64,000 nucleotides of DNA from Sphaerodactylus townsendi (Eukaryota). Shown here piece by piece: positions 1-63,427 of the stretch. How positions within the stretch are numbered: the first letter of the stretch is position 1; the number at the start of each line of letters is the position of its first letter. Under the pieces are notes generated by a model. The model made no database searches. It was not told where the DNA came from and was given only the letters and a program-made list of their open reading frames with translations. The position numbers and the translations under genes are program-made. The stretch covers positions 54,002,001 to 54,066,000 of the forward strand of contig NC_059436.1 in the NCBI RefSeq assembly GCF_021028975.2. Reading direction: 5' to 3'.

Positions 1-517
1 GGAGGGAAATAAAGCTTCTCCTGCTTGTTGTGTTTGCGCAGGAGCACCTCCAACCTGGGATTGTGCAAAAGGATTGCTGGTTTAGTTATCTACGAAAATC
101 CTCATTTGAGGGGAATAAAACAGGCCAAACTTGTTTTGGGAACAGGACCTGTGCAAACTGCCCTCGCCTAAACGGTTTATGTAACATCCTCCAGACATTG
201 TATTTGGTCTGTGCGGAGTACAGCAAAGATAAAGTAGAGGAGGAAGAATATAACTGCTTTGGGTCCCTATCAAGGAGGGACATAGGGTGTAAAAATCTAA
301 ATAAGTATATATCCTATATATCACGGTGTGACAGCATTGTATTTGATTTTTATGAACATTGAAAGAAAATTTGAGACAGACAGATCTTGGCTTTCTTGAT
401 TTAGCTAAAGAGAGGTTTGTTTCTTATGCAGCCACTGATACAATTATAAGGTTGGGTGCCTCAGAGTCTGTGCAGTCACCCATGCATACATGGAACTGCC
501 TTGAAGAGAATTCAGAC

Positions 518-1696: not shown

Positions 1697-3204
1697 TAGG
1701 GTTGCCTCAGCTGGTTTGGAGGCCTGATAAGCCCCCTCAAGGGGCCAGATGTAGCCCACAGGCTGCATGTTCGACACCCCTGGTGTAGGTTGCAGACAGG
1801 CAAGGTCCTGCTGCCGCCATTGGCTTGGGGAGGTGCCTGGTTGAAATATGTCCCCCAAAATCAGCCTTCCCCTCTTCAATGAAATTTCCTTCAGCAGTTT
1901 TTGGGATGAGGCACTTTGAAGTGGTGCTTTCTTCTAGGACCCTGGACAGCTCCCCCCTCGCATCGCCACTTTGGCTCCACCCTTGGTATGTCAGGTCCTG
2001 CCACGGGCTGTCAAAGCCGATCAGCCACACACACTTTGTAGAGCACTTGACAAAGCACAAGGGTGGGGAGGGGGGGTCAGATGCACATGTCATGGAGGCA
2101 GTGTATCCATGTATCATGTCACACATCTGGTGAGGCCCTGAGAACTCACTGCTACTCAGAGCACACAAGACTGCCCTCGATGGTTGCCCTTCGTCAGATG
2201 CATGAAGTTTCTCTTTCAACGGATCTTTGCAGGTACCACTTTCAATCTGCAGGAGGCAGTTGAAGGCTACTTATTCGGGACTGTATTGTACTAATTTTGG
2301 TTTCTTATGAACTGGCAGTCCGTACTGAGATTTCAAAGTGCGATCTTTTACGTTTCCGTGTGTTTTTAAATGGTTGTTCATTTGCATTGTCAGCTGTCTT
2401 GAATTCCACAAGGTAGAAGGGTGGCTAATAAATGTTTTAAGTAGATCAAGTAATGTCTCGGGGGGGGGGGGGGGGCCATGACCTCAGACAGCTCCCCACC
2501 CGTGGAATTTGTGTTTTTTTCTGATACTTCTTTGGAATCCAAGCAGTATTGTCATTAGGACCCACTGTGGTTTAGCAATCTGTTCCGTGAGTGTTTGAAC
2601 TTCACATCATTCAGCATCTGAACAAGTGGAAGAATGTGAGGGTTTTCCTGCCGCTGTGAATCCAGTCAAAACTATGTGCCTGCTGTGCTGTTTCTTCCAG
2701 CTGCCACGTGCTGGCAATGAGGCTGGCAACAAAAGAGACCTCACCAAGGCTCCCCTGGGCCACGCCTCAGTGAGAACCTCTTCCCAAGCACCATCCTAAC
2801 TCATTCTATTTTAATTGATACCTGTGTTTGTTTGCAATCAGCATAAGCTTATTTGGGAACCAATTTCTGTCGGAAAAGTAGGATTTATCTCTCGTATAGA
2901 ATTTTCTTCAGTGACCTCTAATTCCATTTCATTGTCTAATCTGATAGTGGTGGAAAGTGTCACCAAGTCACAGCTGACTTTTGGCAGCCCCACAGGGTTT
3001 CCACGGCAAAAGGCTAAAAGAGGTGATTTGCCACTGCGTGCCTCTGTGTAGTGGCCCTGGGTGCAGTGAGCAAGCTTGATTTGCATGTGTTGGGTGGAAT
3101 CAAGCTTGCTAATTGCACCTTTTACACTTATTAACAGGCAAATGGTTCTTCCTCCCACCCTGGACATTCCACAGGTATATATACTCCACTTGCTTTACTA
3201 CCAT

Positions 3205-3335
3205 CAGATCCTCCGAAGATGCCAGCCTCAGATGCAGGCGAAACGTCAGGAGAAAATGCTATTAGAACACGGCCATACAGCCCAGAAACCCCACAAAATC
3301 CCAGTGATTCCGGCTGTGAAAGCCTTTGACAATAT
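3205..3335 (+). mobile_element. Penelope-like element terminal repeat fragment with mutated hammerhead core
   Basis: Same sequence as 52519-52643, but the core reads CCGAAGA instead of CTGAAGA. Confidence 0.75.
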
Positions 3336-4010: not shown

Positions 4011-4874
4011 TTATGGCTTTTCTCCCGGCTTGTTTGGCCAACGTTGATGAAACCTTTTGACAAGGCCGGGGGCTTTTATGTTGTGGGCAAAGATCCACTG
4101 ATTTTGCCCAGGCAAACAACCCTTCCAGGAGACCAAATACTGCAAGCTGTTACGATACAAGCGAGAATCAAGAATATCAGACAGTTCATAATGCTTGGAG
4201 CCATCAATCAGAATCGGAGGAGGCACTTTCATCTCTGGATGCCAGACGTCCGGGGAAGTTGTCTTCTTCAGGAGACTGCAATGAAACACAGGGTGTAATT
4301 TACTCAAAGCTTTAGGCAAGTCCAGTTCAGCAGTTACCTTATTTATAACCCTGACAATTCGGAAGGGGCCCACATATTTCGCACTCAGCTTGGAGGGTCG
4401 GTGCAGGCTGCGCAAATTCTTAGTAGACAAATAGACCATGTCACCCACCACCAGAGGGAAATCACGCCTATGTTTATTTGCCTGACGCTTGTAGGCCTCC
4501 CTAGCCTTCATAAGAGCCCGAAGGATGCCCGGCCCCTGCTGAGCCACCGACTGAATCCAATCCTGAAGTTCAGGTGCAGGCGAAGAGTCAGACATCAGCA
4601 AATGAGGCAAGGGGGGAGCTGCCTGGCCATGAACCACCTCAAAAGGAGTTTTGCCCGTACTGCTATGAACAGAGTTATTATAGGCGTATTCAGCATAGGG
4701 CAACAGATCAACCCAATTATCTTGCTGATAATTGGCATAACACCTGAGGTATTGCTCCAATGTCTGTTGAGATCTCTCGGTCTCGCCGTCGGTCTGGGGA
4801 TGAAAGGCAGATGAGACCCCCTGCTCCACCCCCAACAATTTGAGCAAAGCCCTCCAGAAACGCGACACAAACAT
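4011..4874 (-). CDS. Gypsy integrase C-terminal part with GPF motif and chromodomain (after a 1-bp frameshift near 4875)
   Basis: FHPQTDGETER (catalytic E), YVGPFRIV and the chromodomain YELSDILDSR..LQYLVSWKG..W. Stop lies 11 nt before the 3' LTR. Confidence 0.9.
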   Translation of the reverse strand: MFVSRFWRALLKLLGVEQGVSSAFHPQTDGETERSQQTLEQYLRCYANYQQDNWVDLLPYAEYAYNNSVHSSTGKTPFEVVHGQAAPPLPHLLMSDSSPAPELQDWIQSVAQQGPGILRALMKAREAYKRQANKHRRDFPLVVGDMVYLSTKNLRSLHRPSKLSAKYVGPFRIVRVINKVTAELDLPKALSKLHPVFHCSLLKKTTSPDVWHPEMKVPPPILIDGSKHYELSDILDSRLYRNSLQYLVSWKGCLPGQNQWIFAHNIKAPGLVKRFHQRWPNKPGEKP

Positions 4875-7417
4875 GCCCCCCCATCTGAAATTATCTTCTT
4901 CGGAAACAAATGTAAACGGTAGATATGCAGCATGAACAGTTCAGCCAATTTCTGAGCAGTGGGAATAGAAGAACAAGGAATAAAGTGGGCCTGTTTCGAG
5001 AATAAATCCACTACAGTCCAAATCACCGTTTTGCCATGACTTAGCGGCAGGTCCGTAATGAAATCCATGGAAATCACCTGCCAGGGAGCACTAGGCAAAG
5101 CAATGTCCTGTAACAGACCCTGCGCCTTTGCAGGAATCGTCTTAGCCATGGCACACACAGGACATCCTTTGATATAATCCTCAATATCCTTACGCATAGT
5201 TCTCCACCAAAACTGCCTCCTGAGCAAGTGCAGAGTTTTCACAAAGCCGAAATGGCCAGCAGTTTTAACATCATGTCCCTGGTGGAGAATTTGAGAACGC
5301 AATGAGGGTGGAACAAACAGCAGAGATCCACGATACCAGAGACCATTCTGTAAGATCAGCCCATCACCCCCCTCCTCCTTTGCAACCGGAGACAGGCCAG
5401 CCGTTAGGAATGCAGAGAGGAGGTGATCTGGAGGAGACAGGCCAGGCTTGTCCTGAGCTAGCATGCGAGACCGGGTAACAACCAGGCCCAAATGGGAGGG
5501 CGAGAGGATTGTGCGGGTAAGAACAGAGAGAGATGAGGATTCACCCCCCTGTGGCAACCGGGAGAGTGCGTCCGCCAACCGATTGGTCTTACCCGGAAAG
5601 AAATGAACAGTGAACCGGAATCTAGCAAAGAAATCAGCCCAACGCGGCTGTTTAGCTGTCAGACGACCCGGGGTGCACAAAGCAGCCAGGTTCTTATGGT
5701 CAGTCCAAACTTCAAAAGGCTGTTCAGCTCCTTCCAAAAAATGCCTCCACACAGACAGAGCAACTTTCATAGCACAGGTTTCCTTATCCCCCACAGTCCA
5801 ATTCAGCTCAGCCCCAGAAAATTTACGGGAAAGGTAGGCACAGGGACGAAGGCGACCCATGGGGTCCCTCTGGAGGAGGGCAGCCCCAAGAGCCTTGTCT
5901 GAGGCATCCACGTGCAACACAAAGGGCCGAGAGGGGTCAGGATGAGCCAAAACAGGTTCAGATGTGAACGCCGCCTTCAGATTGTCAAAGGCTGCCTGGC
6001 AGGAAGGACCCCAGGGCAAACTGGCACCAGGGCGGGCCGCAGCAGCACCCCGTGATGTAGTACGCAGGAGGTCAGTCAGGGGCAGAGCCAGGGAGGAAAA
6101 ATTCGGAATAAAGTCACGGTAGAAATTTGCAAAGCCCAGAAAGGACTGGAGTTGTTTACGGGAGCGGGGGGGCTGCCAGGCGAGCACATCAGCTACTTTG
6201 GCAGGGTCCATTTGTAATCCAGCAGCAGAAATACGGTAACCTAAAAAGTCAAGCTGAGATTTGTGGAATTCACACTTGGAAAGCTTCACAAACAGAGAGT
6301 TAGCAAGAAGTCTCGTCAAGACCTCTCTAACCAAGGCAACATGAGAGGCTTCGTCCTGTGTATAGATCAAAACATCATCTAAATAGACAACCACCCCCTT
6401 GAACAACAAGTCATGCAGAACACCGTTAATCAAACTTTGAAACACGGCTGGCGCCCCCGTGAGGCCAAATGGGAGAACACAGTACTCGAATTGACCGTAT
6501 CTCGTGTTGAAGGCCGTCAGGTGCTCATGCCCCTCTGCCATCCTGACGCGATAGTACGCTTCCCTCAAATCCAACTTAGTGAAAATCTTGCCAGAGCCCA
6601 GGTTAGACAACAAATCCTTGATTAACGGCAAGGGGTATCTATTAGAGCTAGACACAGCGTTCAGGCCGCGGTAATCTGTGCAAAGGCGAAGCGTGCCATC
6701 CTTCTTCTTCACAAACAAAACAGGGGCAGCATAAGCACTGCGTGCTTTCTGAATAAAACCCCGAGCCAAATTCTTGTCCAAAAAAGCCCTCAATTCAGCA
6801 TCCTCAAGGGGACTCATTGGATAAATCCTGCCCTTGGGGAGTTTCGCCCCCGGAATCAGTTCAATCCTACAGTCCGTCTCTCGATGGGGAGGTAGCACAT
6901 CACACTCGGTTTCCTCAAAGACACGTTGTAAATCCTGATAAGGGGCAGGAATCACAGGAGCACTGCTGGCCGGCTGAAGGCTGCACGCCATGCCCTTAGA
7001 CGCACCTAACAAGTGGTCGGGAGGTTCAGAAGCTTGCATCATTCTCCAGGCTGCAGTGTCAGAGGCATCAGCTCGGTCCGCAGAACGGTCGGATAAGTTC
7101 CCAGCCAAGGGAGCTGTCGCCCACGTGGCACTGGACGTTCCCCACGGCAGGGAATCCCGGAGCATTTCAGCATTTCTACGACGCCTCATGGTAACTCCTT
7201 GTGAGGCGTCCAACGGAGCAGTCAAAAATCGAGTGGGAGCCTCCAGATAGCTGGTCGCAGGCAGTTCACCTCCGGAGGCAACTGTAAATCCAGCCGTAAC
7301 GCGGGGTCCCTCCAAGGGATCCGGTATTGAGTCCGACCCAGTTAAATCAGGCTCCAGGGGGAGTACTGGTTCAACTCTCAGAGTATCATCCCCACCGGCA
7401 GCACCCGAGGTCGACAT
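4595..7417 (-). CDS. Gag-N-terminus/Pol fusion ORF: RT, RNase H and integrase N-half (runs out of frame after ~4875)
   Basis: RT motifs LCTDYRGLN, KLDLREAY, LPFGL, YLDD. RNase H VDASD..LGAAL, WTDHKNL. Integrase HHCC (GH..AGH..CPVC), SMDFITDLP, IISDGG. Confidence 0.92.
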   Translation of the reverse strand: MSTSGAAGGDDTLRVEPVLPLEPDLTGSDSIPDPLEGPRVTAGFTVASGGELPATSYLEAPTRFLTAPLDASQGVTMRRRRNAEMLRDSLPWGTSSATWATAPLAGNLSDRSADRADASDTAAWRMMQASEPPDHLLGASKGMACSLQPASSAPVIPAPYQDLQRVFEETECDVLPPHRETDCRIELIPGAKLPKGRIYPMSPLEDAELRAFLDKNLARGFIQKARSAYAAPVLFVKKKDGTLRLCTDYRGLNAVSSSNRYPLPLIKDLLSNLGSGKIFTKLDLREAYYRVRMAEGHEHLTAFNTRYGQFEYCVLPFGLTGAPAVFQSLINGVLHDLLFKGVVVYLDDVLIYTQDEASHVALVREVLTRLLANSLFVKLSKCEFHKSQLDFLGYRISAAGLQMDPAKVADVLAWQPPRSRKQLQSFLGFANFYRDFIPNFSSLALPLTDLLRTTSRGAAAARPGASLPWGPSCQAAFDNLKAAFTSEPVLAHPDPSRPFVLHVDASDKALGAALLQRDPMGRLRPCAYLSRKFSGAELNWTVGDKETCAMKVALSVWRHFLEGAEQPFEVWTDHKNLAALCTPGRLTAKQPRWADFFARFRFTVHFFPGKTNRLADALSRLPQGGESSSLSVLTRTILSPSHLGLVVTRSRMLAQDKPGLSPPDHLLSAFLTAGLSPVAKEEGGDGLILQNGLWYRGSLLFVPPSLRSQILHQGHDVKTAGHFGFVKTLHLLRRQFWWRTMRKDIEDYIKGCPVCAMAKTIPAKAQGLLQDIALPSAPWQVISMDFITDLPLSHGKTVIWTVVDLFSKQAHFIPCSSIPTAQKLAELFMLHIYRLHLFPKKIISDGGACLCRVSGGLCSNCWGWSRGSHLPFIPRPTARPRDLNRHWSNTSGVMPIISKIIGLICCPMLNTPIITLFIAVRAKLLLRWFMARQLPPCLIC

Positions 7418-7542
7418 ACTGACGCACAGAAGTCCTCAGGCAGAAAAAATAAAGTCCAGAAAATCAAGGAAAAAATAAATAAAAAATTGTAGAAGGTGCA
7501 ATTCCAGCAAGCAAGTCCGCATGGAATTCAGCCTTAAAGGGG

Positions 7543-11212: not shown

Positions 11213-11409
11213 TCACCATGCAGTCCATTCCCCCACCTGCCCTCCTCTCACCCCAAACACCACGCTGGGCCCAGCACAAGGCCTGGTACCAGCCTCCCCA
11301 TTCCCCTTGCTCTCCCCTTCCCAAACACCAATCCGGGCCCCAAATGCCAAGCTTTAAAAACAAACTACAGGCTAAAGCTTGCTGGGCCTGGAGGACAAAG
11401 GCTTTAAGC

Positions 11410-11544
11410 CATAGGTGTCAAACTCGCGGCCCTCCAGATGTTATGGACTACAGTTCCCATCATCCCCTGCCAGCATCATGCTGGCAGGGGATGGTGGGAA
11501 CTGTAGTCCATAACATCTGGAGGGCTGAGAGTTTGACACCTGTG
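11410..11544. mobile_element. Palindromic hAT MITE carrying two ACTACAnTTCCCA motifs
   Basis: Near-perfect 135-bp hairpin with an 8-bp TSD CTTTAAGC. Confidence 0.9.
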
Positions 11545-12974
11545 CTTTAAGCAACTGAATAAAAAGTGTTGTGTCTTAAAGGGACCATGCCAGCCAGGAA
11601 GGATTCAGGTAAAGAGACGGAGGGGCTGTTGTATGGGGAGACAGAGAGAAGGAGAAGGTTTGGGAAGTGGTTTTCTGCAGCTTATCTACACATTTACTTT
11701 CCTGTGTTTTTTTGGGGGGGGGATGGGAGGTTTGGTAGAATCATTTCTTCCCTTTTCATATAACAATCCCCCCCCCCACACACACACTTTTCTAGAGCCC
11801 ATTGCATTTCCCCCCACAATGGGCTTTACAGCTAGTGTCTATATAATTTACAACAATCTACCTTGAATCCTTGGGGTCTACCAGGGGAGAGAAACCAAGA
11901 AAGGTCATCTCTGGGAAGAGACCTTGCAAGAAGGAGGGACCAGGCATAAGCCAGGATTCCTTCCCTTATTATGCCTAGCTCTGGCTCCCCTCCTGCCAGC
12001 TCTCCAGTGACCTTAGAAAAGGGGTGGGGTGGGGGAGCAGCAGCCAGGAGCCCTTCCCTTGTGCCTGGACTGACATGACTGTGTTAAATCAAACTCCGAG
12101 AAAGATCAGAGGCATATTTCCCCATAAATAAGCACTCTTGTGACAAGCAAATCAGATTTCCCTGGCTGGAGGTGAGATCTCTTGATGAGATGCTTGAAAA
12201 ACTTGGGCTTTTGGGTCATCCCTAAGCACAATATGAGACAAAAAGGAGAAACCTGATTTGCTTCTGAAACTATTATTTTGTGGGAACTGGATCGAATGCC
12301 TACAAATTGTATTAGATCAAGGAATATGGATTTTGTATGAACCAAAGATTTCTAAGAATCAAATGGGGTTTCTATATAGAGACCAGCAGGACTGCATGTT
12401 AGCAGCAGTTGTGCAGGCAAGCAAAGATAAATATCTTTAAGATCTTGTCACTAAAGGTTAATACGTGACAGAAGACATATACATTTATAACTTTGTTTTT
12501 GTTAGAACCAGCTATAGGGAATAGCTACATGAATAAACAGAATCATAAAAGAGATCAGAGGTTAGAATAGAAATGAATGTGATTAGTTAAATGGAAAAAG
12601 TGTTTTTCTATATATGTTAAATGAACACAGAGAAATGATAATGAGAGATTCATATTTACTGATTTTCACTATAATTCCATTGTATTAGAACTAAAGGCAA
12701 TTGTTAGAAGGTCTTTCTCTGCATGGTGGGTGTGTCTCTGCCAAGAGCAATCTAGAGGGGTTCATCTTCTGTCTCTATATTCCTGTTAAGTAAAACTGTC
12801 TGTTTGTTTCTGCTGTCTGATGTCTGATGCTTTCTTGGGACTTTGTTTCTAACCTATCTTTTCTCAGAAACAGCTATGCGAGGCCGGACATGAGTTCTGG
12901 GCCTCACAATTTGGTATAATATGTATTAAACAGCATATCGAGGTTGGGAAGAAGGTGATTTTTTTCCTGACAGC

Positions 12975-13118
12975 TTGCATCTGTGTGGCTGGTATCTCGA
13001 GGATGCCAGCCACAGATGGTATAAACGCCAGGAGAGAATGCTGCTAGAACACGGCCATACAGCCCGGAAACCACACAGCACCCAAGTGATTCCGGCCATG
13101 AAAGCCTTCGACAATACA
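12975..13118 (+). mobile_element. Penelope-like terminal repeat fragment (degenerate hammerhead)
   Basis: Matches 52519-52643, with a short inverted piece on the left. Confidence 0.7.
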
Positions 13119-21900: not shown

Positions 21901-24900
21901 TGGGTTAGTCAGCATTATAACCTGTTGTTTGAGCCGGGTTGCTCATTCCTGCCATGCAAAGCTTTCCAGGATGTCTGAATAAACGGACTTATAATCAAAA
22001 GCCTTTTTATTTCTGCTCTTTGGAATTCCTTACACTCCAGATGTTCGTGGACTACAATTCCCACCAACCAATTGGCCATGCTGGCAGGGGCTGGTAGGAA
22101 TTGTAGTCCATGAACATCTGGAGCGCCATAGGTTGGCCACCCCTGTGATATGGCATAGTTAGGCACAGCTGCAAAACGTTGTGGTGGGGGGGGGGGAAGT
22201 GTCATCAAGTGACAGCTGACTTATGTGAATCTCTAGGACAGACCTGGGCATTATACGGCCTGCGGGCCACATCCGGCCCGCCAGATTACCCTGACTGGCC
22301 CCCCTGCCATGCTGGGGAGCGAGGCACTTGAGGGAAGTTCCCCAGTGCCGGTTGCCTTGGCTGCCGGGTTTCAAGTGGGCTTTCATATGCCTCAGCCTGC
22401 CTTTTGGCCCGGCCCTCCACAATATTTTCTGTTTCTTATGTGGCCCCATGGAAAAAATAATTGCCCACCCTTGCTCTAGGAGTTTCAAGGCAAGGGTTGT
22501 CCAGAGGTGGTTTGCCATTTCCTGCCTTCACGTGGGGTGAGAGAGTTTGGAGAGAGCTGTAACTGGCCCAAGGTCACCGAGCAGGCTTCACTGGAGGAGT
22601 GTGGAATCAAACCCTGATCTCCAGATTAGAGTCTACCCTACAAGGTCGCCATAAGTCAGCTGTCACTTGGCGGCACTTTCCACTGCCACCACCCTTTCTC
22701 AAGGTCTTCTGGACACCGTTGTGTGTGTAAAGAGCCCTCAAGTCACAGGTGACCTACAGTGACCCAAACACTTTCCAAGGCACAGACCAGGAAAGGGATT
22801 TGGGCGTCTTAGTTGATAGTTCCATGGGAATGTCAACTCAATGCATGGCAGCTGTGAAAAAGGCAAACTCTATGCTGGGGATAATTAGGAAAGGAGTTGA
22901 GAATAAAACTGCAAAGATTGTCATGCACTTATATAAAGCCGTGGTGCGACCGCACTTGGAGTACTGTGTTCAGTTCTGGTCGCCACATCTCAAAAAGGAT
23001 TCTGAAGAGATGGAAAAAGTGCAGAGAAGGGCAACAAGGATGATTGAGGGACTGGAGCACCTTCCTTATGAGGAGAGGCTGCAGCGTTTGGGACTCTTTA
23101 GTTTGGAGAGGAGACGTCTGAGGGGGAATATGATTGAAGACTATAAAATTATGCATGGGGTAGAAAATGTTGACAGAGAGAAATTTTTCTCTCTTTCTCA
23201 CAATACTAGAACCAGGGGCATCCATTGAAATGCTGGGGAAGAATTAGACTAATAAAAGAAACACTTCTTCAATGCTTAACGCAGGATTGGTAAATTTAAA
23301 TATGCTGCCACAGGAGGTGGTGAGGGCTACTAACCTGATAGCTTTTAAAGTGCTTTGGACAGATTTATGGAGGAGAAGTGTCGATTTTTGGCTACCAATC
23401 TTGATCCTCTTTGATCTCAGATTGCAAATGCCTTAATAGTCCAGGTGCTCGGGAGCAACAGCCGCAGAAGGCCATTGCTTTCACATCCTGCATGTGAGCT
23501 CCCCAAGGCACCTGGTGGGCCACTGTGAGTAGCAGAGAGCTGGACTAGATGGACTCTGGTCTGATCCAGCTGGCTTGTTCTTATGTTCTTATGGCAAGTG
23601 ATTCAGCAGAGGTCTGGGCATCATTACGAAGACCAAATAGAAGCACTTGTCAGGATTGCTAAAGCAGCAATTCTTAGTTCGGGTCTGATAAGAAAGGAAG
23701 TATTGCATATATTTCAATCCTCCTTGCAAAAGAATGTTAAAAACTGGTTTTTCCCCATGGCTTCAACATTTCCAGAAATGATACTTCCATAGATGGGTAG
23801 TCCTGAGTTAATGGCAGGTTCAATCGACGGAGGCATTAGTCCCCTTAGAAGTTGCCCCTGCATTGGTTGGATTCTCCTCCTGCCCTCCCAGTTTTGCTTA
23901 TGCTGTTGTGTTGTTCTTGACACTGAAGTGACCTTTTGACCTCCTCCCAAACAATGCACCTGAGGCCTTTGACATCTGCATCAAATTTTAATCCATTTGT
24001 TAAAAGGGTTTGTCAAGCTTCCTTCGGGGGAGGGCGGTATAAAAGTGGAATAATAAATAAATAAATAATAAATAAATAAATAAATAATAGTAGGGTTCAG
24101 TCCATGGGTTCTCCAGATGTTCATAGACCTTGAAGTTCCCAAGGGCCCTACCACTTGGCCATGCTGGCAGGGGTTGATGGGAATTGTAGTCCATGAACAT
24201 CTGGAGGGCCATAGTTTGAAGACCCCTGGTCAAAGGCTTTAATGGTGCTTTTTGCTCCTGTCTAGGAGCACCCCTAAATGCCATCTAGGGGTGGCATTTT
24301 CAGAAGCGTGTCATGGTGAGATTTGTGCCACAGAGAGAAACACATCTAACTGAACGATTTGCTGGTTAAAATGTAAGCAAAGAATCCAGACCCTAATATC
24401 ACATACCTCTTGGGTAAATTTCCGAAGAAGTAGCTGAGTGAATCTGTTGTGGACAAAGCAACTGGGTCTTCTGGCACCGTAAACAGGTTTTGTGGCGTTC
24501 CCCCTGCCCCGCCTGCAGCCCGGCTGCACAGCAAAGCCCGGCCCTCCGGCCCCTAACCAGGTGTTGGGCCCCTCGCCAGTGGCCCCGGCTCCTTGGGGCC
24601 TTCACCGCCAGCTGCCTAAGAGCCACAGGGTGGCCGCCTAGGGAGGGGAGGTGCGTAGCAGCTTCCTCCCTCACCAGCTTGCATGACCTGCCTACACCAG
24701 GCTGGGGTCGGCTACAGCCCCACGGGTGCAGAAGCCAAATCTCACGCCGCGTGAGCAGCCGCCCTTCCCTCCCCTCCACTCCCTTTCCCAAGCGCCCGTG
24801 TTCACCTCCGCTCGCAGTCCCTCCCTCTCTCCCCAACTACGTTCCCCTCGCCTCCTTTCTTCCAGCCTCTCTCTTTCTCTCTCTCTTTTGTCCCACGCCA

Positions 24901-35506: not shown

Positions 35507-38500
35507 CTGTCGAAAGAGAAAAGAGTCAGGAAGGAGGGAAAGTAGCCGCTTCAGCCGTGGGAAGCCATAGAGCAGGGGCTATTTGAGAACACTTGTACTG
35601 CATCTCTCCTCTTGGAAGGAATAGTTGTAACAAGAGTGTTAAAACCGGATAAATCAAACCCCAAATAGCGTTAATATGCATTAATACGCCATTTTCAAAT
35701 GAATATCTTCTTCAGTAACGCGATTCTTGAGTGTAACATTCGTAGTCGACATAAATATGTCTGTTTAAGTTCTAATTTTGGTATTCAGGGATTGATTGCA
35801 CATACTGCAATGGGTACATTTGAAATGTCCTAAAATGGACGGTTTTTCCCTAATTACAGGTCTGAAATCCAAATGCATTCATTTCTGCTTAAGATTCACT
35901 GTTTTTCTAAATCCTATTTGAAGAGGTACCGGTAGGTACCAGACATCTGGGGAAATACAGCTAGACGTGGAAGACTTTTTGTGGTCCAAATTATTGACCA
36001 AGGCCCAGAAATTTTTGGTATTGTTGGAGATAACAGCAGAATGTAAATGCTCCCATTGTGATTTGGCATGTTCAAGCTGTTTCATGAACTACAACGACTG
36101 TTTGCACTCTGGCTGTAACTAATCTCTCAGATGCATATATATACATAAACTTATATCGTTGTTCATCTTTTATATTTCATTAGTTATAATCACAATCACA
36201 TATTTTCAAATAACAATAGGATGTGATTGTGATTATAACTAATGAAATATAAAAGATGAACAATGATATAAGTTTATGTATATATATGCATTTGAGAGAT
36301 TAGTTACAGCCAGAGTGCAACAGTCGTTGTAGTTCATTCACCAATATTTACTGCTGTACCCGAGCTGTTTCATGGCCATTAATTGGCAAAGATCGATTTT
36401 ACATTGGGAAATCTGATTCCAGATCATGGGAAATCGGGAATTTTTATAACATCGATACAATTGGCGGATTTTTGTATTGAATTGCTCACATTCTTTGTCA
36501 AACCAGGAAGCCTTGTTGCTGCCTGGCTTAAATTTCTTCATATCATATTTTAGTAAGCAGTTGACTACATGCTCTCAAGTAAATGCACACCACTATCGCC
36601 CTTGCTGGTGTAACTCACTGTTTTTGTTATTGAAAACAGACACAGACACCGAAGACTCCAGATCTCGCAGTCCCAGGTCCTCCCGTCTCTTTCCACTCCT
36701 CCAAAAGTCCAACGCCACTTCCGTTATTTTTTCAGCCCCTGCATTGCTGCAAAAAAAAGTACTGTATATACTCACGTATAAGCCGAGTTTTTCAGCCCTG
36801 TTTAAAGGCTGAGAAAAGCCCCCTCGGCTTATACACGAGTCACCATTTTCTATCAATCACAAGGAGACTGGGGGCGGGGCAACCTCCCTGCTGCCAGCAG
36901 GCAGAGGGAGCTCCTTATTTGGGCAGTGACATCAGGGGGAGTCACTGCCCAAATAAGGAGCTCACTCTGCCTGCCGGCCAGCTGGGCTTTGTCAAACCCA
37001 GCCTTGATGTCACTGCCCAAATAAGGAGCTCCCTCTGCCTCCCGGCTTCCCATCCTGGGCTTATACCCAAGTCAATAAGTTTTCCCAGGTTTGGGCAGTA
37101 AAATTAGGTGCCTCGGCTTATATATGGGTTGGCTTATACACGAGTATCTACGGTAGTCAACAACCTTTCTCTTTTGCAAGAACAGCAATCCTGCAGTTCT
37201 GTGTGATCTCAAAGAAAAGCTTGGTGAAGTCCCAAGCATTTAACAAACCTAGGATCAGAGACTTAATGCTGATCCCAGAACTCCCAGATAAGCTTCGAGG
37301 CTTCTTCAGGACTGCAGCCAAGAGGTCTGCTACCACTACCCAAGGATGGAAATACCTTCTCTGCTAACCTGAGGAAGATGAAGATGGCTTTCCGGTAAGA
37401 CACACCATCCAGCTGCTCATAATAGTCCAGGAAAGGTTTGATGGAATCAATGAGTCCTGCGTGCATTTTATCCATCTCGTCAAAAATGAAGATGGACCTC
37501 GCGCAGGCAGTGACATTGCCCCGAACCCACATTTGCAACTGGTCCTAAAACAGAGAGAGAATTCTATACATTCTAGCTGCTAAGATCAGTGATGTGCGAA
37601 TACAGACTTACAGTATCTCCCAAGACTTTTTGACATCAACCTAAAAGCCGTCAATGTTCAACAAAGAAACTTCAAAGACAAACTCCCACATGAAGCTGGC
37701 TGAATTTAAAACACGTCAGAACAGGTAAGCATATTTGTCTATCTCTGCATAAAGGTGCGCAATTAACAGTTTCCTAGTTTTAGCTTTACCAGTCTGGCAA
37801 ACACAAAACTGACGATAAAGGCTCTCCTCCCCATTCCAGCTTTACAGTGGAGGATGTTCCAAGCTGGGTAGTCCAAGCACCTGAGCTCAGGTTGGGAAAT
37901 ACCAGAGATTCTGGGGGTGGACCCTGGGGCATTTCCAAAGCACCGTGTAACACCAGAGATCGAACACCACCTCTTCCCCTCGGGGCCATCTAGAAACACA
38001 AATCCTGACTGATTAATGCCAGCTAAAATAGACTTCAGTGCATGCAGTTAAGGATGTTTTCATTGAGTCAGCCACTCAGCCTGTGAGGAACACAAGAGAT
38101 CCCTTAAAGGGACTTTGAAAATCACTGTAATAAAACAGCTCATGTCTTCCAAGCACACCTGTCATACTTCAGTGATGTAAATATTACCTTGTACTGGGTG
38201 ATGTTCTGCCGATGAGGAAAGTGCAAAGTGGAAACAAAATTATGGACATATTTGCTGTTGAGGCCTCCTTCGTAGATGCTCTCTGCAATGATCTTGCTGA
38301 CAAAGTTCTTGCCTGTGCCCGTCCAGCCATGCAAGGAGAGGGTCAGCGGCTTCTTCGGATTCGCATTATTCAAAAAGCCAGTGACGGCTTTCACAACCAC
38401 CTTTTTCACCAGATGCTGCCCAAAGAGCTTCTTGTCCAACTCCTCCTCAAGCACTAGAAAGGAAGAACAACAATCTGCTCAATGGGAATCAGGATCACTT

Positions 38501-41500
38501 CCACAGCCGTGCCTTTACGTGTCAGCCTGCCATTTCTAGAGGGCTCCGACCAAGCCACAGATATGAAGTCATTTCCTTCAACGGGAGATCCACTAGGACA
38601 GTGGTGGCGAACCTTTGGCACTCCAGATGTTATGGACTACAATTCCCATCAGCCCCTTCCAGGATGGCCAATTGGCACTAGGAGATCAGCTCTCAAGACC
38701 ACACAGGGCTCAACACAGCATCTTGGGTTGCAAACAGGAGTATAGTCTCATAGTCCCTCTGCAATTCTTTCCCAGGTGTAAGTACTGGTTCCCTCACCTG
38801 AAAAGTCAGCTTCTGCAGTTGTGGAAGGCAGATAATAAACCCATATAGGGGAGTCATTCTACTCAGACCTTCCTGTCCGACTCTAGATGAACTTCTCACC
38901 ACACACTTTCTCTTCCTCTTACCAGCATATTCTAAAGAAAAGGCTGTCAAACTTGGACCAGGAAGACCCTCCTTCAAAGTCACACACTTCCATGAAGCCT
39001 ATGGGTAGACTAGGTTGTTGTGGGTTTTCCAGGTTGTGTGGCCATGTTCCAGTAGCATTTTCTCCTGATGTTTCGCCTGCATCTGTGGCTGGCATCTTCT
39101 CTGAAGCCACAGATACAGGCAAAACATCAGGAAAAAATGCTACTGGAACACGGCCACACAACCCATAAAACCCACAACAACCTAGTGATTCCGGCCGTGA
39201 AAGCTTCTGACAATACCGTGACTTTGGGACAGACTCTGCCTGTCAGCCTAACTGATCTCCCAGGGTTTTTGTGAAGGTAAAAAGGCAGAAAGGGAAAGAC
39301 CCTGATGAATGCAAAGGTCCCTGCAGGAACGGCAGGATAACTGCAACCCTGCTAATATTCTCTTTTCCCAGCCTAGCCAACGGCTAGAATGTTTACATTC
39401 AAACTCCCTCAATTTCCCCAAACCATTTCCTTCTCTGAATATTTCACTCCTCTGAAGTGTGTGTTTTTGTGCGTCTATTTGTGGGAGGCAGTGTGTGTTG
39501 CAGTTCTTCACTTCCTGTGGTAGCCATTTTATGGCAGAGCTCACCACATTATGTCAGAACTCCAAAGGTGTTCCCAGACTTAGGAAAGTTGGGGGGCCCT
39601 CCCTCACCATGCACCTCTCATGCATTTCTCCCTTCTCCACACCCACTGCTCCACAACTACTTAGCACCCAAAATCTTGTTCCTTTCTCCCAAATACAAAG
39701 TTAGAATCATGGAATCTTCTACGTTCATAAAAGCGAGTTCTCCACATTGCATCACACTGCAGGATGAGTCAAACCTAAGATGCGACTAACAAATCAGTGG
39801 GGCCTGTAAACACCAACACTGATTGTTAGTGGCTGGGTCACAAGGGACTCTGCCCCAACGCTGCCCCCAACTACTTCCTTTGGTTTTCTCCCTTACAAGC
39901 AAATAGCTGCCACACACTCCTTTAGAATAAAATGAAACTCTTTTCTTGGAAGCAGAATTGGGGCAATGTTCATGCTGACAAATGCCCCTACGAGGGACAA
40001 AGCTGAAAGAGCCTTCAACCAAAAACATCCCACAAAACAGGCCACCTTCTACTGCAGCACAAGCAACATGCAGAAAACATTTCCTTCACTGATGAATATG
40101 TCACAATAATCCCGCTGTGCATCTTGGAGGGAGAACTACTTTCCAAGAAGGCATCATCACTGGTAATGTGAAAGAAACCAGTCACCCCTTGCTGTGCACC
40201 CACAGCTCGGAACAGCAGAGCCTTTCCCTGACATCACGGCACCTAGTGCCCATCTCCTCCGACTCAAAGAACCTGGCTCCAGCAGCCCTCTTCCCTAACC
40301 ACAATCTTTTGCCCAACATCAGAAGCCCAGGTCACAAGAATATAAGAACATACTCTGGTTTCTCTTAAGATCGTATAAATTGATAAGAACATAAGAAAGC
40401 GCCTGCTGGATCAGACCAGAGTCCATTTAGTCCAGCACTCTGCTACTTGCAGTGACCCACCAGATGCCTCTGGGAGCTCACATGCAGGAGGTGAAAGCAA
40501 TGGCCTTCTGCTGCTGCTGCTCCCGAGCACCTGGTCTGCTAAGGCATTTGCAATCTCAGACCAAGGAGGATCAAGATTGGCAGCCACAGATCAACTTCTC
40601 CTCCATAAATCTGTCCAAGCCCCTTATAAGAACACAAGTTCCAGTGAATGTCCACAGAATCGCTTCCAGCAAAATAATACAGTGCTTACACAAAAAGGAA
40701 GAACTCCTGAAATTTGACTTGCTCATCCTGCCATGGTCCAGGTGACCAACTTGATAGAATCTTTTTGTCACTGTTGGGAATCCAGAAAATCTCTGCACTG
40801 CATACACTAATTTTTTCTTTATACCCGCATTGAGTAATTCTCAGGTTACATTCAGACCCCATAACGGCCAAAGCATGATGAAAAACCCACTTTTATCCTA
40901 GTACTGGTCCATCATTTTGTTTGTAAAGCGTCAATTCTTTCTTACAAAGACACACACGTATGTGCACCCAAGAGACAGCTGCACTCACTGCCATGTGTGA
41001 ACACGGCTAGAGGTCCTATTCCAGTGATGGCGAACCTATGGCACGGGTGCCAGAGGTGGCACTCAGAGCCCTCAGAGCCCACACGCAAACAGAGTGCCCC
41101 CCCACCCCCACATCTAGGCTGGTCTGGGCTGCTGGGCTCGATTATTAGCATTTAAACCTATGACCTAGTTTTGGGGAAGCAGTGTAGGTAACCCTGTTAA
41201 GCGCTGTTAAACCCCACTGATTCTCATGCAAAGAACCAAAGCGTGATCCTTTACCTGGGAGTAAGCTCAGTTGCTGGCAATGGGGCTTGCTTCTGAGTAA
41301 ACCCTCCTAGGGTCGTGATTCACCTGTTGGAAGAGTTGCACGGTTGCTTCAAAGCAAAGCCACCGACTACCACCAAGCTTACTCCCGAGTAACGCACGCC
41401 TCGGAGCCAATCGTTTTTTTCTAAACTAAAACCTCACTATTCAGGTTAAATTGCCATGTTAAGCATAAGCATAAGCATTTTTATTGTCATTGTGCACGCA

Positions 41501-43660: not shown

Positions 43661-43953
43661 TTAACATCCCCCTCCTCTATAAAGTATCTGTAGGGCTTCA
43701 GCTCCTAATGTTCCGCCTGCATCTATGGCAAAATACATGTTCCCATGGCACACACACGGCCACACAGCCCAGAAACCCCACAACAACCTGTTAATGCTTC
43801 ATCTCCCCCCCCCCCACGCCCCGTTTTTAAACACTACCTGCCAATAGAAAACTAACACATCAGGGAGCGGGCTGGGGCATAACCATTCCCTCTATTTTAG
43901 TATTTCAGTCCCAGGGAATCTTTTCCTTGCCCACCTGCAGCCTGAAGTAAACC

Positions 43954-51400: not shown

Positions 51401-54400
51401 TCACAGAAAGTCGTAGCAGAAGGAGAGTCCCATCACAGGCCTTCTAGGCATGAGAGTCAAATAGAACCTCCATGTTCTGAGGCACTATATCTTGGAATGC
51501 CAGTTACTACCCATCAAAAAACAGGGGATGCCCTGTGCTACTGCTTGTGAACCTTCCAAAGTACCTGGGTGGACACTGTGTGGACCAGGATTATGGACTA
51601 GATGAACCTCTGCTCCACTTCAGCACAGCTCTTCTTGTGTTCTTATAATGCAACTTACATGTCAGCATCTTCATCTCTCCTGTTGGTCTCTGCAGAGAAG
51701 GAAGTCCCAAGGTTCAGGTCCTCTTCTTCACTGATTCTATTAAGAGAGAAACATCCCCCACCCCAAAATCAATCTTAACCAACATCAAGAGAAACATGAT
51801 AAAAGCTATGGCATCATGAAGGTATCACGCCAAACCATGGTTTGCACATACTGTGAATTAGAACCAACCAGGGTTTGAGCTTCTAAATGTACAACCTTTG
51901 GTTGCTTTTCTATCCATTCTGCTTCATGAATTCACTCCCATCTCCATAGTGCAGCAGCTACTGGAAGTTGAACTACAGCTGCAACTCTGATTTGTGAATT
52001 CAGGCATCATGTGCTCATGTGTTAGCCAATCATAAAAGCCAAACCATAGTTAACATGAACCATGATCTGCAACTGCAAGTCAGAATATGGCTTAGGATTC
52101 TGCTTTTCCTACCTAATTTCAAACCATGGCGTGTCAATTTAGACATTACACCAAACCGTGGTGAGCACAAGCCAGAGTTGACAAATCTACTTCAGAACTA
52201 TTACTTCCAGTTACGGCTTGCTTGCCCATCATAAACCATGCTTGTTAATAAATACACTGCACCGAACCATTGTTAAGTGTTTTACTGGAACATTTCCTTA
52301 TCTACTGCAGTTTTTCAAGCTGAACGTGCTCCTTCAACAATACGGATGTCTTAGTAGTGGCTATAATAAAGTTTTTGCAATTCTGATTAAGGAGATGGTT
52401 TTTCAGAAACTATTACAGCAATGGGTGCTGTGTGGTTTCCGGGCTGTATGGCCGTGTTCTAGCAGCATTCTCTCCTGACGTTTCGCCTGCATCTGTGGCT
52501 GGCATCTTCAGAGGATCATCTGAAGATGCCAGCCACAGATGCAGGCGAAACGTCAGGAGAGAATGCTGCTAGAACACGGCCATACAGCCCGGAAACCACA
52601 CAGCACCCAAGTGATTCCAGCCGTGAAAGCCTTCGACAATACATTTTTACAGCAATCATTATTAATTCAAACAGTATTTTTAAGGCACAATCCAGTCAAA
52701 GTCAAACATTTCACAGTCTTCTGATTTCAACATAAAAGTACATCAATGGGACTACCAAATGCTCAGTAAATTGGCTCACAAATCTACAGCCAAAATGGAA
52801 GTGGTGAGCTGGAGCCAGCGCAGTGTAGTATATTTGCACTGGGATCTGGGAGGTCAGGGTCAAATCTCCACCCAGCCACAAAGCTTCCTGGGTGACTTCC
52901 AGCCAAACTGTCAGCCTGACCTACCTCACCCAGATGTTGCAAGGAGAAAAAGAGCCGGTGCTGTCCTGAGCTCCTTGAAGGTGGGATGGTATCAAAATTC
53001 AGCAGTGATTGACATAGCTCCCTCAAACATAGCATTTGGCAAAGGGCCAGTGGCCTCCCACCCACCTTTGCAGGCATTTTACATTACCTTTACATTTCCA
53101 GGGAGGGGAAAAAAGAGACAATGATTTGTAAACTGCCTTGATCTCTCAAATGGCCTGGGGGAGGGGGGCAGTGAAATGGGGAGAGGCAAATAAGGGATGA
53201 CAAAGGAAGCTCCATTGAGAAGCATCCCTTGAACTGTGTATAGAAAGGAGAATTTCTCCAGTTATATTCTCCCATTGTACTGTTACAATAACAAGAACAA
53301 CTGTACCTGAATTCTCACCCAATTTTTACAGGTAGAGGAGTCCTCAAAAATATCTGCCCCTCTCTCTACTTCCTACTGTTTCTTAACTTATTAGTTTTAA
53401 GCAGGTACCAAGTGATTCCCCAGCCTATGAAGCGCTCTGGTCTGCCTAATTCAGGGGTAGGGAACCTGTGGCTCTCCAGATGTTCAGGAACTACAATTCC
53501 CATCAGCCCCTTCCTGCATGGCCAATTGGAGACAATGGAAACATCTGGAGAGCCGCAGGTTCCCTACCCCTGACCTAATTCCTTCTTGTACATGATTGAG
53601 AAGTATTCCGTGATGGAGTGTGCTCCCACCCACAGGTGAAGTGGAGCATTCCAGATCCAGATTGTCTACCAGTGCAATCCTAAGGACACGAAGTCCCACT
53701 GGCAAACAACTGAGATTTACTTCCCCATAGACCGGCCGAGGTTTGATTCGTACCCTGTTGAAAAAACCGATGCCTTCGCCAAGTTCTTTACTGCAGCAAG
53801 CCAGATGCTGGCTGTTGCTTCCTGCATCCGTATGCCTTGTTCCACAGCAAACGTGCTTTATTATATACCTCAGGGGAAACCAGACACGCTCACCTGTCCT
53901 TGCCCCGTTCCTTCAGCTTCTTCATGTCCACCATTCCGCCAGTCTTTACATTAAAGGGGTCATCCTGGGGAAAAGAGGGATTTTAAGTGAGAGAGATGTG
54001 TCTATCTCTTGTCATTTAGCTTTACCTCACTGATGCATATTGTGTGTTAAGGCAGATCACTATGATCTAACTGACAGTTCACCTGACTGTTGCTTGAGGC
54101 AGTGAGCTGGTTCTAACCGGCTTCACCTGGACTATGTGACCTTTATGCTGATTGGTCAGTACTTGTATATATTCTGAACAGATGTGACTGTATGCACTGG
54201 CTAGGGTATTTCTATGTTGGCGAAGCATGCTGTCAGTTTGTTCTGTGATCCTGTAAATACTTCTTGTATATAACTCCACTGTTGATAAACTGCACTTCAC
54301 TAAAGAATAACGGCTTCTTGTGCTGTGTCTACTATTGTGGTGTTGCAACTGAGTTCCAAGGCTGCTTCTCCTACTCTCGGTCACCAGCATTCCGCTGTGC

Positions 54401-63295: not shown

Positions 63296-63427
63296 CTGTG
63301 GTGGCGAACCTATGGCACTCCAGATGTTCATGGACTAAAATTCCCATCAGTTCCTGGCCATGCTGGTAGGGGCTGATGGGAATTGTAGTCTATGAACATC
63401 TGGAGTGCCATAGCTTTGCCACCGCTG
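63296..63427. mobile_element. Palindromic hAT MITE
   Basis: Same family as ~26240-26370 and ~38599-38676. TGTAAGC direct repeats flank it. Confidence 0.8.

Follow-up and report, generated by a model that had tools for sequence, protein, structure and literature searches.

Intron 4 of a C9orf78-like gene harbors a 244-bp insert that carries two hammerhead ribozyme motifs back to back. The gene occupies the minus strand of the analyzed window, a stretch of 64,000 nucleotides in all, and its six exons, bounded by AG/GT-type splice sites, form one open frame, with exon 6 matching Pfam Hep_59 (E 1.5e-15). Both results confirm the location in C9orf78 intron 4 named by the original prediction. TOR1B (plus strand) and TOR1A (minus strand) adjoin, upstream in the window; for the other genes, Pfam mapping covered the 227 longer frames left of 45,500, of 271 listed.

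Other repeats share the window. Long open frames on the minus strand at 4014-7435, with Pfam matches to RT, RNase H, integrase zinc-binding, SH3 and chromodomain families, point to a Gypsy-type LTR retroelement. A large fold-back of an unrelated AT-rich family lies within TOR1A at 36075-36374 on the minus strand, with outer arm ends at 36084 and 36337, main arms that are 98% complementary, a 25-nt extension on one side and a 12-bp flanking direct repeat (36075-36086 and 36363-36374). The CTGAnGA core occurs on neither of its strands, and its overall architecture is that of a Penelope stub without the hammerhead. Copies of a very abundant, short MITE-like hairpin repeat are present at 53451-53573, 11404-11550, 63300-63423 and 22035-22123, the copy in intron 4 showing a read depth equal to that of the Penelope stub.

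The insert is composed of two terminal fragments of a high-copy repeat arranged head to head, with the target sequence duplicated on either side (Table 1). Recounting the arms at 52422-52512 and 52519-52609 gave exact reverse complementarity at 91 of 91 positions, as originally described, and when the six central bases are included the structure extends to a loop-less palindrome of 94+94 nt with a single mismatch, G52513 against A52518. The latter base sits beside the self-complementary GATC at the palindrome axis and differs from the C found in the upstream sequence of the family, as represented by the copy at 3136-3334 and by loose contig ends. No contig of the mapped runs spans the palindrome center, and A52518 is therefore read from the assembly.

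Table 1. Features of the insert, its host intron and the other copies of the family in the window.
Feature	Position	Strand	Remarks
Intron 4 of the C9orf78-like gene	51737..53893	-	2157 nt; element ~1.24 kb from donor and ~0.68 kb from acceptor
Left target-site duplication	52413..52422	+	9-10 bp; last T common to arm; organism D contigs stop at 52422
Inverted 5'-truncated terminal segment	52422..52517	-	-12 to +84 relative to ATG; tail-less; sense to C9orf78 pre-mRNA
Complete minimal type-I hammerhead motif	52473..52515	-	4-bp stem I, CUGAAGA, extra U, stem II, GAAAC, GUC
Self-complementary GATC	52514-52517		Palindrome axis; likely junction microhomology
Second hammerhead motif	52516..52558	+	Stem I mismatched once; cut predicted at 52554/52555, 26 nt past ATG 52526-52528
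Direct 5'-truncated copy	52519..52609	+	Element sense; carries start of element ORF
One-sided tail	52610..52643	+	34 nt; ends in AC-rich stretch at +111..+118
Right target-site duplication	52647..52656	+	Second occurrence of TTACAGCAAT
Simple direct copy	3136..3334	+	Extends further upstream; flanked by a 7-bp duplication; single core substitution
Short-armed fold-back with tail	12975..13118		Core damaged
Older fold-back of related subfamily	39009..39216		TOR1A intron 1; same host orientation; arms 75/82 identical; both cores damaged

The duplicated target is the 10-mer TTACAGCAAT; its only two occurrences in the 64 kb are those flanking the insert. The chance of such a pair is ~1.5e-4, even allowing 5 nt of slack per side, and with A or T at seven of its ten bases it represents a short target duplication in AT-rich DNA. 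The original prediction had the palindrome bounded by this duplication. The duplication itself stands, but the boundaries are less simple, as the right copy is separated from its arm by the 34-nt tail plus TTT and the left copy overlaps its arm by one nucleotide.

Scanning both strands of the whole window for the full hammerhead core together with at least 3 bp of stem I returned a sole site, the minus-strand motif whose core starts at 52511 and whose predicted cut falls at 52477/52476. The claim that the copy in host sense is intact, with a full core and a 4-bp stem I, is thus borne out, and the single stem-I mismatch reported for the plus-strand copy can be placed at A52518. When the sequence from 52515 to 52473 is compared with the published description of minimal hammerheads (min-HHRs), it displays CUGANGA, GAAA and NUH in type-I order and a helix I whose 4 bp fall within the described 4-5 bp, together with an extra base after A9, a G10.1-C11.1 pair and a palindromic helix III. 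A short helix I, an extra base between 9 and 10.1, the G10.1-C11.1 pair and a palindromic helix III also mark the min-HHRs of metazoan Penelope-like elements (PLEs) according to Cervera and De la Pena 2014 (PMC4209133), where helix II has 7-8 bp and differs from the 5 bp with an internal mismatch found here.

Structure prediction for the isolated 49-mer and for its co-fold gave a minimum-energy structure other than the active fold. Rfam returned no hammerhead match at the gathering score, and at E values up to 10 there were 20 matches, all under their thresholds, mostly to generic miRNA hairpins and none to a hammerhead. The lack of a hammerhead match is unsurprising because the motif is minimal, and the miRNA-like matches arise because the hairpin is perfect. 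Activity as an unmasked dimer may exist, since Lunse and colleagues are said to have reported dimer cleavage in 2017.

Among the closest known systems is PAc, the Poseidon element of Anolis carolinensis. According to Frangieh et al. 2024 (PMC11167929), the PAc ORF starts at stem II, its hammerhead cuts 26 nt downstream of the start codon, an AC-rich stretch at +111..118 holds the start of reverse transcription, an optional tail corresponds to the sequence between two start sites, and in vitro both target strands are nicked and extended with a preference for AT-rich targets. The insert reproduces this geometry closely: the ATG at 52526 lies at stem II with the predicted cut 26 nt downstream, the AC-rich ACAATACA at 52636-52643 falls at +111..118, the 34-nt tail covers the interval between the two start sites, and the target is AT-rich. 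It combines a hammerhead at the ORF start, a tail of the 30-40-nt class at one end only, 5' truncation with an inverted second copy, and a short target duplication. The same layout, in which a 5'-truncated copy is inverted and one end carries a tail of 30-40 bp, appears in Craig et al. 2021 (PMC8557442); Arkhipova et al. 2013 (PMC3846280) describe inverted pLTRs, 8-10-bp duplications and junction palindromes, with head-to-head arrangements commonest, and PMC4209133 describes dual minimal hammerheads on opposite strands in PLEs.

Endonuclease-positive PLEs (Penelope/Poseidon) are defined by an ORF with a telomerase-like RT and, at its C terminus, a GIY-YIG endonuclease. The focal copy retains only 40 codons, without RT or GIY-YIG sequence. 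This frame resembles stretches of repeat origin in gene models of a gecko (82%) and of Anolis (62%), which is a further pointer to a lizard host. Used as a query in protein searches, it gave one and eight matches, none of which carried RT or GIY-YIG; all of them were repeat fragments, lying either in short contigs or inside gene models, and full-length proteins were absent. Because no full RT/GIY-YIG relative was retrieved, the clade name rests on the geometry and the short peptide. Two of the matches (P0001 and P0007) place the first 40 codons inside the gecko 'caskin-1-like' and Anolis 'caspase-14 isoform X3' models, reflecting either mis-annotation or exonisation. Taken together, the PAc geometry, the tail, the duplication and the published layout support the original assignment to a Penelope-like insertion with minimal hammerheads, and we conclude that the insert is very probably a dead stub left by the recent insertion of a Poseidon-type Penelope-like retrotransposon, its hairpin being a by-product of integration.

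Four copies in the window contain the motif region: three fold-backs, one of them (the focal copy) with an intact core, and one direct copy with a single substitution. Rechecking the copies at 3205, 12975 and 39011 upheld the statement that all three have damaged cores. Two of them (~12975-13118 and 39009-39216) are themselves fold-backs, which had been overlooked, and the same tail ends all three. All three fold-backs of the family in the window turn at the hammerhead's 5' edge, upstream of the ATG by no more than ~13 nt. The turn-around points, at 52514-52517, ~39098 and ~12997, may represent a hotspot. At 43702-43788 there is also a decayed remnant of this repeat, in which an antisense piece precedes a sense piece.

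To view the family beyond the window, contigs from four public runs, of 16 listed, were mapped to 51600-54000. Between 27,506 and 66,484 contigs per run fell on this 2.4-kb stretch, concentrated on the element and on a second repeat at 53382-53624, and because of this load we regard the Penelope family as very abundant. Summed depth over the element is about five orders above the flanks, a figure that is shared with the repeat at 53382-53624 and is not a copy number. Pattern scans for more copies in viral, metagenome and prokaryote genome contigs found none, as expected for lizard DNA.

The joints recovered from these contigs lead from the antisense arm into the sense arm in all 15 of the best supported among 574, at varied positions, and therefore represent inversions. 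Six of these best 15 lie inside the reference range and show 2-4 nt of microhomology; in nine of the 15, the inverted arm bears a full-length hammerhead that is not covered by the partner arm. As the joints derive from short contigs, with 18-28 letters on the short side, they show extent and not sequence integrity or gene context. In run X6, 103 contigs of other copies end at 52423, which marks a fixed family terminus for the tail-less arm. Back-to-back copies of a related subfamily on other contigs are read through by three of the eight protein matches (P0004, P0006 and P0008), while direct and tandem forms of the family are represented by the copy at 3136 and by go-back joints.

Two further properties of the contig ends are recorded here. 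Two of 27 listed joints, both from other copies (52511 to 52555 and 52476 to 52555), terminate directly past the predicted cut, at its first downstream base (+30), and one of the two does so on both arms; either chance or a remnant of cut templates could account for this. At 52514 and at 52473/52558, loose ends indicate at least two further subfamilies that share the hammerhead region and diverge either upstream of stem I or just past the cut site.

Read data also bear on the age of the insertion. In two samples of organism A, the host species, contigs run from flank into element on both sides, to 52446 and from 52623, and since two samples contain both junctions we take the insert to be genuine and, within the species, at least common. 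Organism D differs from the reference at 61 of 2161 flank positions (2.8%). Two of its contigs break off at 52422, each leaving 11 letters unaligned, and a further alignment would fit a start at 52647. Judged from these alignment ends, the orthologous site in organism D appears to be empty; precise excision between the duplications in that organism is possible, and a skip joint of the kind expected for an empty site was absent among the best 15 of 574 joints. Organism B (run X4) had too little cover, and neither junction was reached by a contig. Between the arms there is 1 difference in 94 positions in the focal copy versus 7 in 82 in the 39009 copy; applied to the A-D split, this arm clock predicts 2.65 differences, with a probability of 0.26 for at most one, and alone it does not date the copy. 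The apparently empty site in organism D indicates that the copy is young, and we attribute its intact core to this youth.

The anatomy of the insert suggests how it may have formed. By analogy with Anolis PAc in vitro, the element protein would place a nick in each strand of an AT-rich target, with 9-10 nt between the two, and each 3' end would then prime reverse transcription on element RNA, one from +84 and the other from +118; the tail would be confined to one side because two different RT start sites were used. Both cDNAs would stop ~10 nt upstream of the ATG and be joined via the self-complementary GATC, with A52518 representing either a later substitution or an untemplated base. This insertion model leaves unexplained why the three fold-backs in the window all turn around within ~13 nt upstream of the ATG.

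A less probable but credible route to the same element identity is a snap-back, in which one cDNA or antisense template self-primes at GATC. The perfect, loop-less palindrome with its identical arms would follow naturally, and self-priming on an antisense template has been proposed for rotifer Penelopes in PMC3846280. The tail-less arm, however, ends at the fixed family terminus (52423), which fits the second RT start site seen in vitro, and the listed junctions of other copies are mostly asymmetric with arms of unequal length. The fixed terminus therefore leads us to favor two priming events over the self-priming described in PMC3846280.

With two primed cDNAs as the preferred origin of the hairpin, its consequence for the ribozyme can be considered. 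Once transcribed as part of the host pre-mRNA, the arms are predicted to pair into a 91-bp hairpin, burying the hammerhead core. Equilibrium (not kinetic) folding of growing minus-strand chains gives a probability of 0.73-0.80 at 52506 that the core is paired with the upstream arm, rising to at least 0.999 when the chain has reached 52490 and the cut site is still to be transcribed; the predicted hairpin reaches ~-211 kcal/mol against -8.4 for an imposed hammerhead fold. Sequestration of the host-sense core by the arm transcribed before it, as first proposed, is thus predicted. The plus strand folds alike (-211.0), and because both strands are masked to the same degree, masking follows from the geometry of any head-to-head junction.

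Several published observations indicate that a monomer of this kind would have little effect. In PMC4209133, single min-HHRs of metazoan PLEs show no cleavage and dimers show low activity; the PAc hammerhead, as described in PMC11167929, cleaves only with its protein, and RNA-seq yields no read ends at the cut site; and hammerhead cleavage within an intron leaves splicing efficient while the fast HDV ribozyme does not, according to PMC2995048, citing Dye 2006 and Fong 2009. Because published monomers remain uncleaved, PAc needs its protein and intronic hammerhead cleavage leaves splicing efficient, there is likely nothing to switch off at this locus. The monomer motif is probably inactive in any case, and the insert would likely be near-neutral and spliced out with intron 4. 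The predicted burial of the ribozyme is thus probably incidental, not an off switch that selection has shaped. Within the limited open-access literature, masking by an inverted arm was proposed in no title or abstract that we found.

A selective effect could still operate at the level of the family. Here the fold-back would remain a by-product, and weak purifying selection would purge unmasked, host-sense, intact intronic copies more than masked ones. Both classes exist in the family, nine of the best 15 junctions (of 574) leave the motif uncovered, and the focal copy is masked. A preprint reports that tandem hammerhead retrozymes in Xenopus are under-represented in introns, although 42-44% of copies overlap them, so that a weak filter retains some probability. 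However, the four window copies with the motif region show no pattern beyond age, and selection of this kind would require cleavage in vivo by a monomer or trans-dimer. On balance we consider such a passive filter unlikely.

Another reading shifts attention from the ribozyme to the 91-bp double-stranded RNA as the relevant biology. Long intramolecular double-stranded RNA is a substrate for ADAR and Dicer, and the pre-mRNA is predicted to form a highly stable hairpin, which could thus serve for editing or as a small-RNA precursor. The copy is nonetheless young and lies deep in the intron, where editing would be incidental and not a function, and this interpretation too appears improbable.

The original prediction went further, regarding the upstream antisense arm as a built-in off switch, on which the survival of an intact self-cleaving motif in this conserved gene would depend. 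Apart from the predicted masking, the sole complete motif in the window is indeed host-sense and masked, and the Xenopus under-representation points in the same direction. Against this, masking is symmetric and geometric, the copy appears young, the 39009 fold-back sits in a TOR1A intron in the same orientation with dead cores, nine of the best 15 junctions are uncovered, such monomers are inactive in vitro and slow intronic cleavage is reportedly tolerated. The notion that masking lets the ribozyme persist is thus not sustained, and an off switch is very improbable.

Two explanations of the insert as a whole fare no better. A non-autonomous, palindromic MITE-like element moving as a fixed unit would account for a short, palindromic, duplication-flanked and high-copy sequence, and real MITE-like hairpins lie nearby. 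Such an element would be expected to have inverted repeats at both ends and uniform copies, however, and here the 34-nt one-sided tail spoils the terminal symmetry, the junction positions vary by copy, and direct and tandem forms exist; we therefore rejected a MITE or hairpin DNA element as highly unlikely. An assembly or long-read fold-back artefact, which the lack of a contig across the palindrome center might suggest, is effectively refuted by the target duplication, the one-sided tail and the flank-to-element contigs across both junctions in two short-read samples.

The single locus matters little, being a young stub of an abundant retroelement with a published layout. Of wider interest would be the possibility, to which we assign a low probability, that the very many head-to-head stubs of this family record hammerhead activity in living lizards, such that unmasked host-sense intact intronic motifs are purged, masked ones survive and junctions pile up at +30. 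If true, Penelope hammerheads would cut in vivo and affect host genes, and a filter of this kind, or an excess of junctions at the cut site, would, if real, inform the question of what role these hammerheads have in vivo.

Among known intronic ribozymes, HH9 and HH10 are amniote hammerheads with a canonical fold, a stable helix III and an Rfam match that are active and deeply conserved. The motif described here resembles them in lying on the sense strand within an intron of a conserved gene, but it is minimal, repeat-derived and apparently missing in a close relative. A conserved, domesticated ribozyme of the HH9/HH10 type was rejected on the absence of an Rfam hammerhead match and of a helix III loop and on the apparently empty site in organism D. 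We likewise rejected a non-LTR retrozyme, in which direct tandem units each carry a type-I hammerhead, as the two motifs here are inverted.

In Schistosoma, as described in PMC4209133, min-HHR pairs on opposite strands are 100-700 bp apart, whereas those in C9orf78 intron 4 are directly adjacent and fully complementary. Relative to PAc, to which it was compared by geometry and peptide, the insert comes from another lizard and another subfamily, is a stub without RT or endonuclease, and is arranged head to head and not in tandem. With the PLE insertion units described in PMC8557442 and PMC3846280 it shares the head-to-head arrangement, the junction palindrome, the tail and the target duplication, and it departs from them in that both copies are truncated to less than 135 nt, as a consequence of which the entire insert is a palindrome. 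The feature is real, of an already known kind and with a published layout, and it provides a clean textbook example in that 244 bp suffice to read off the target duplication, a likely 4-nt junction microhomology and both of the RT start sites known from in vitro work.
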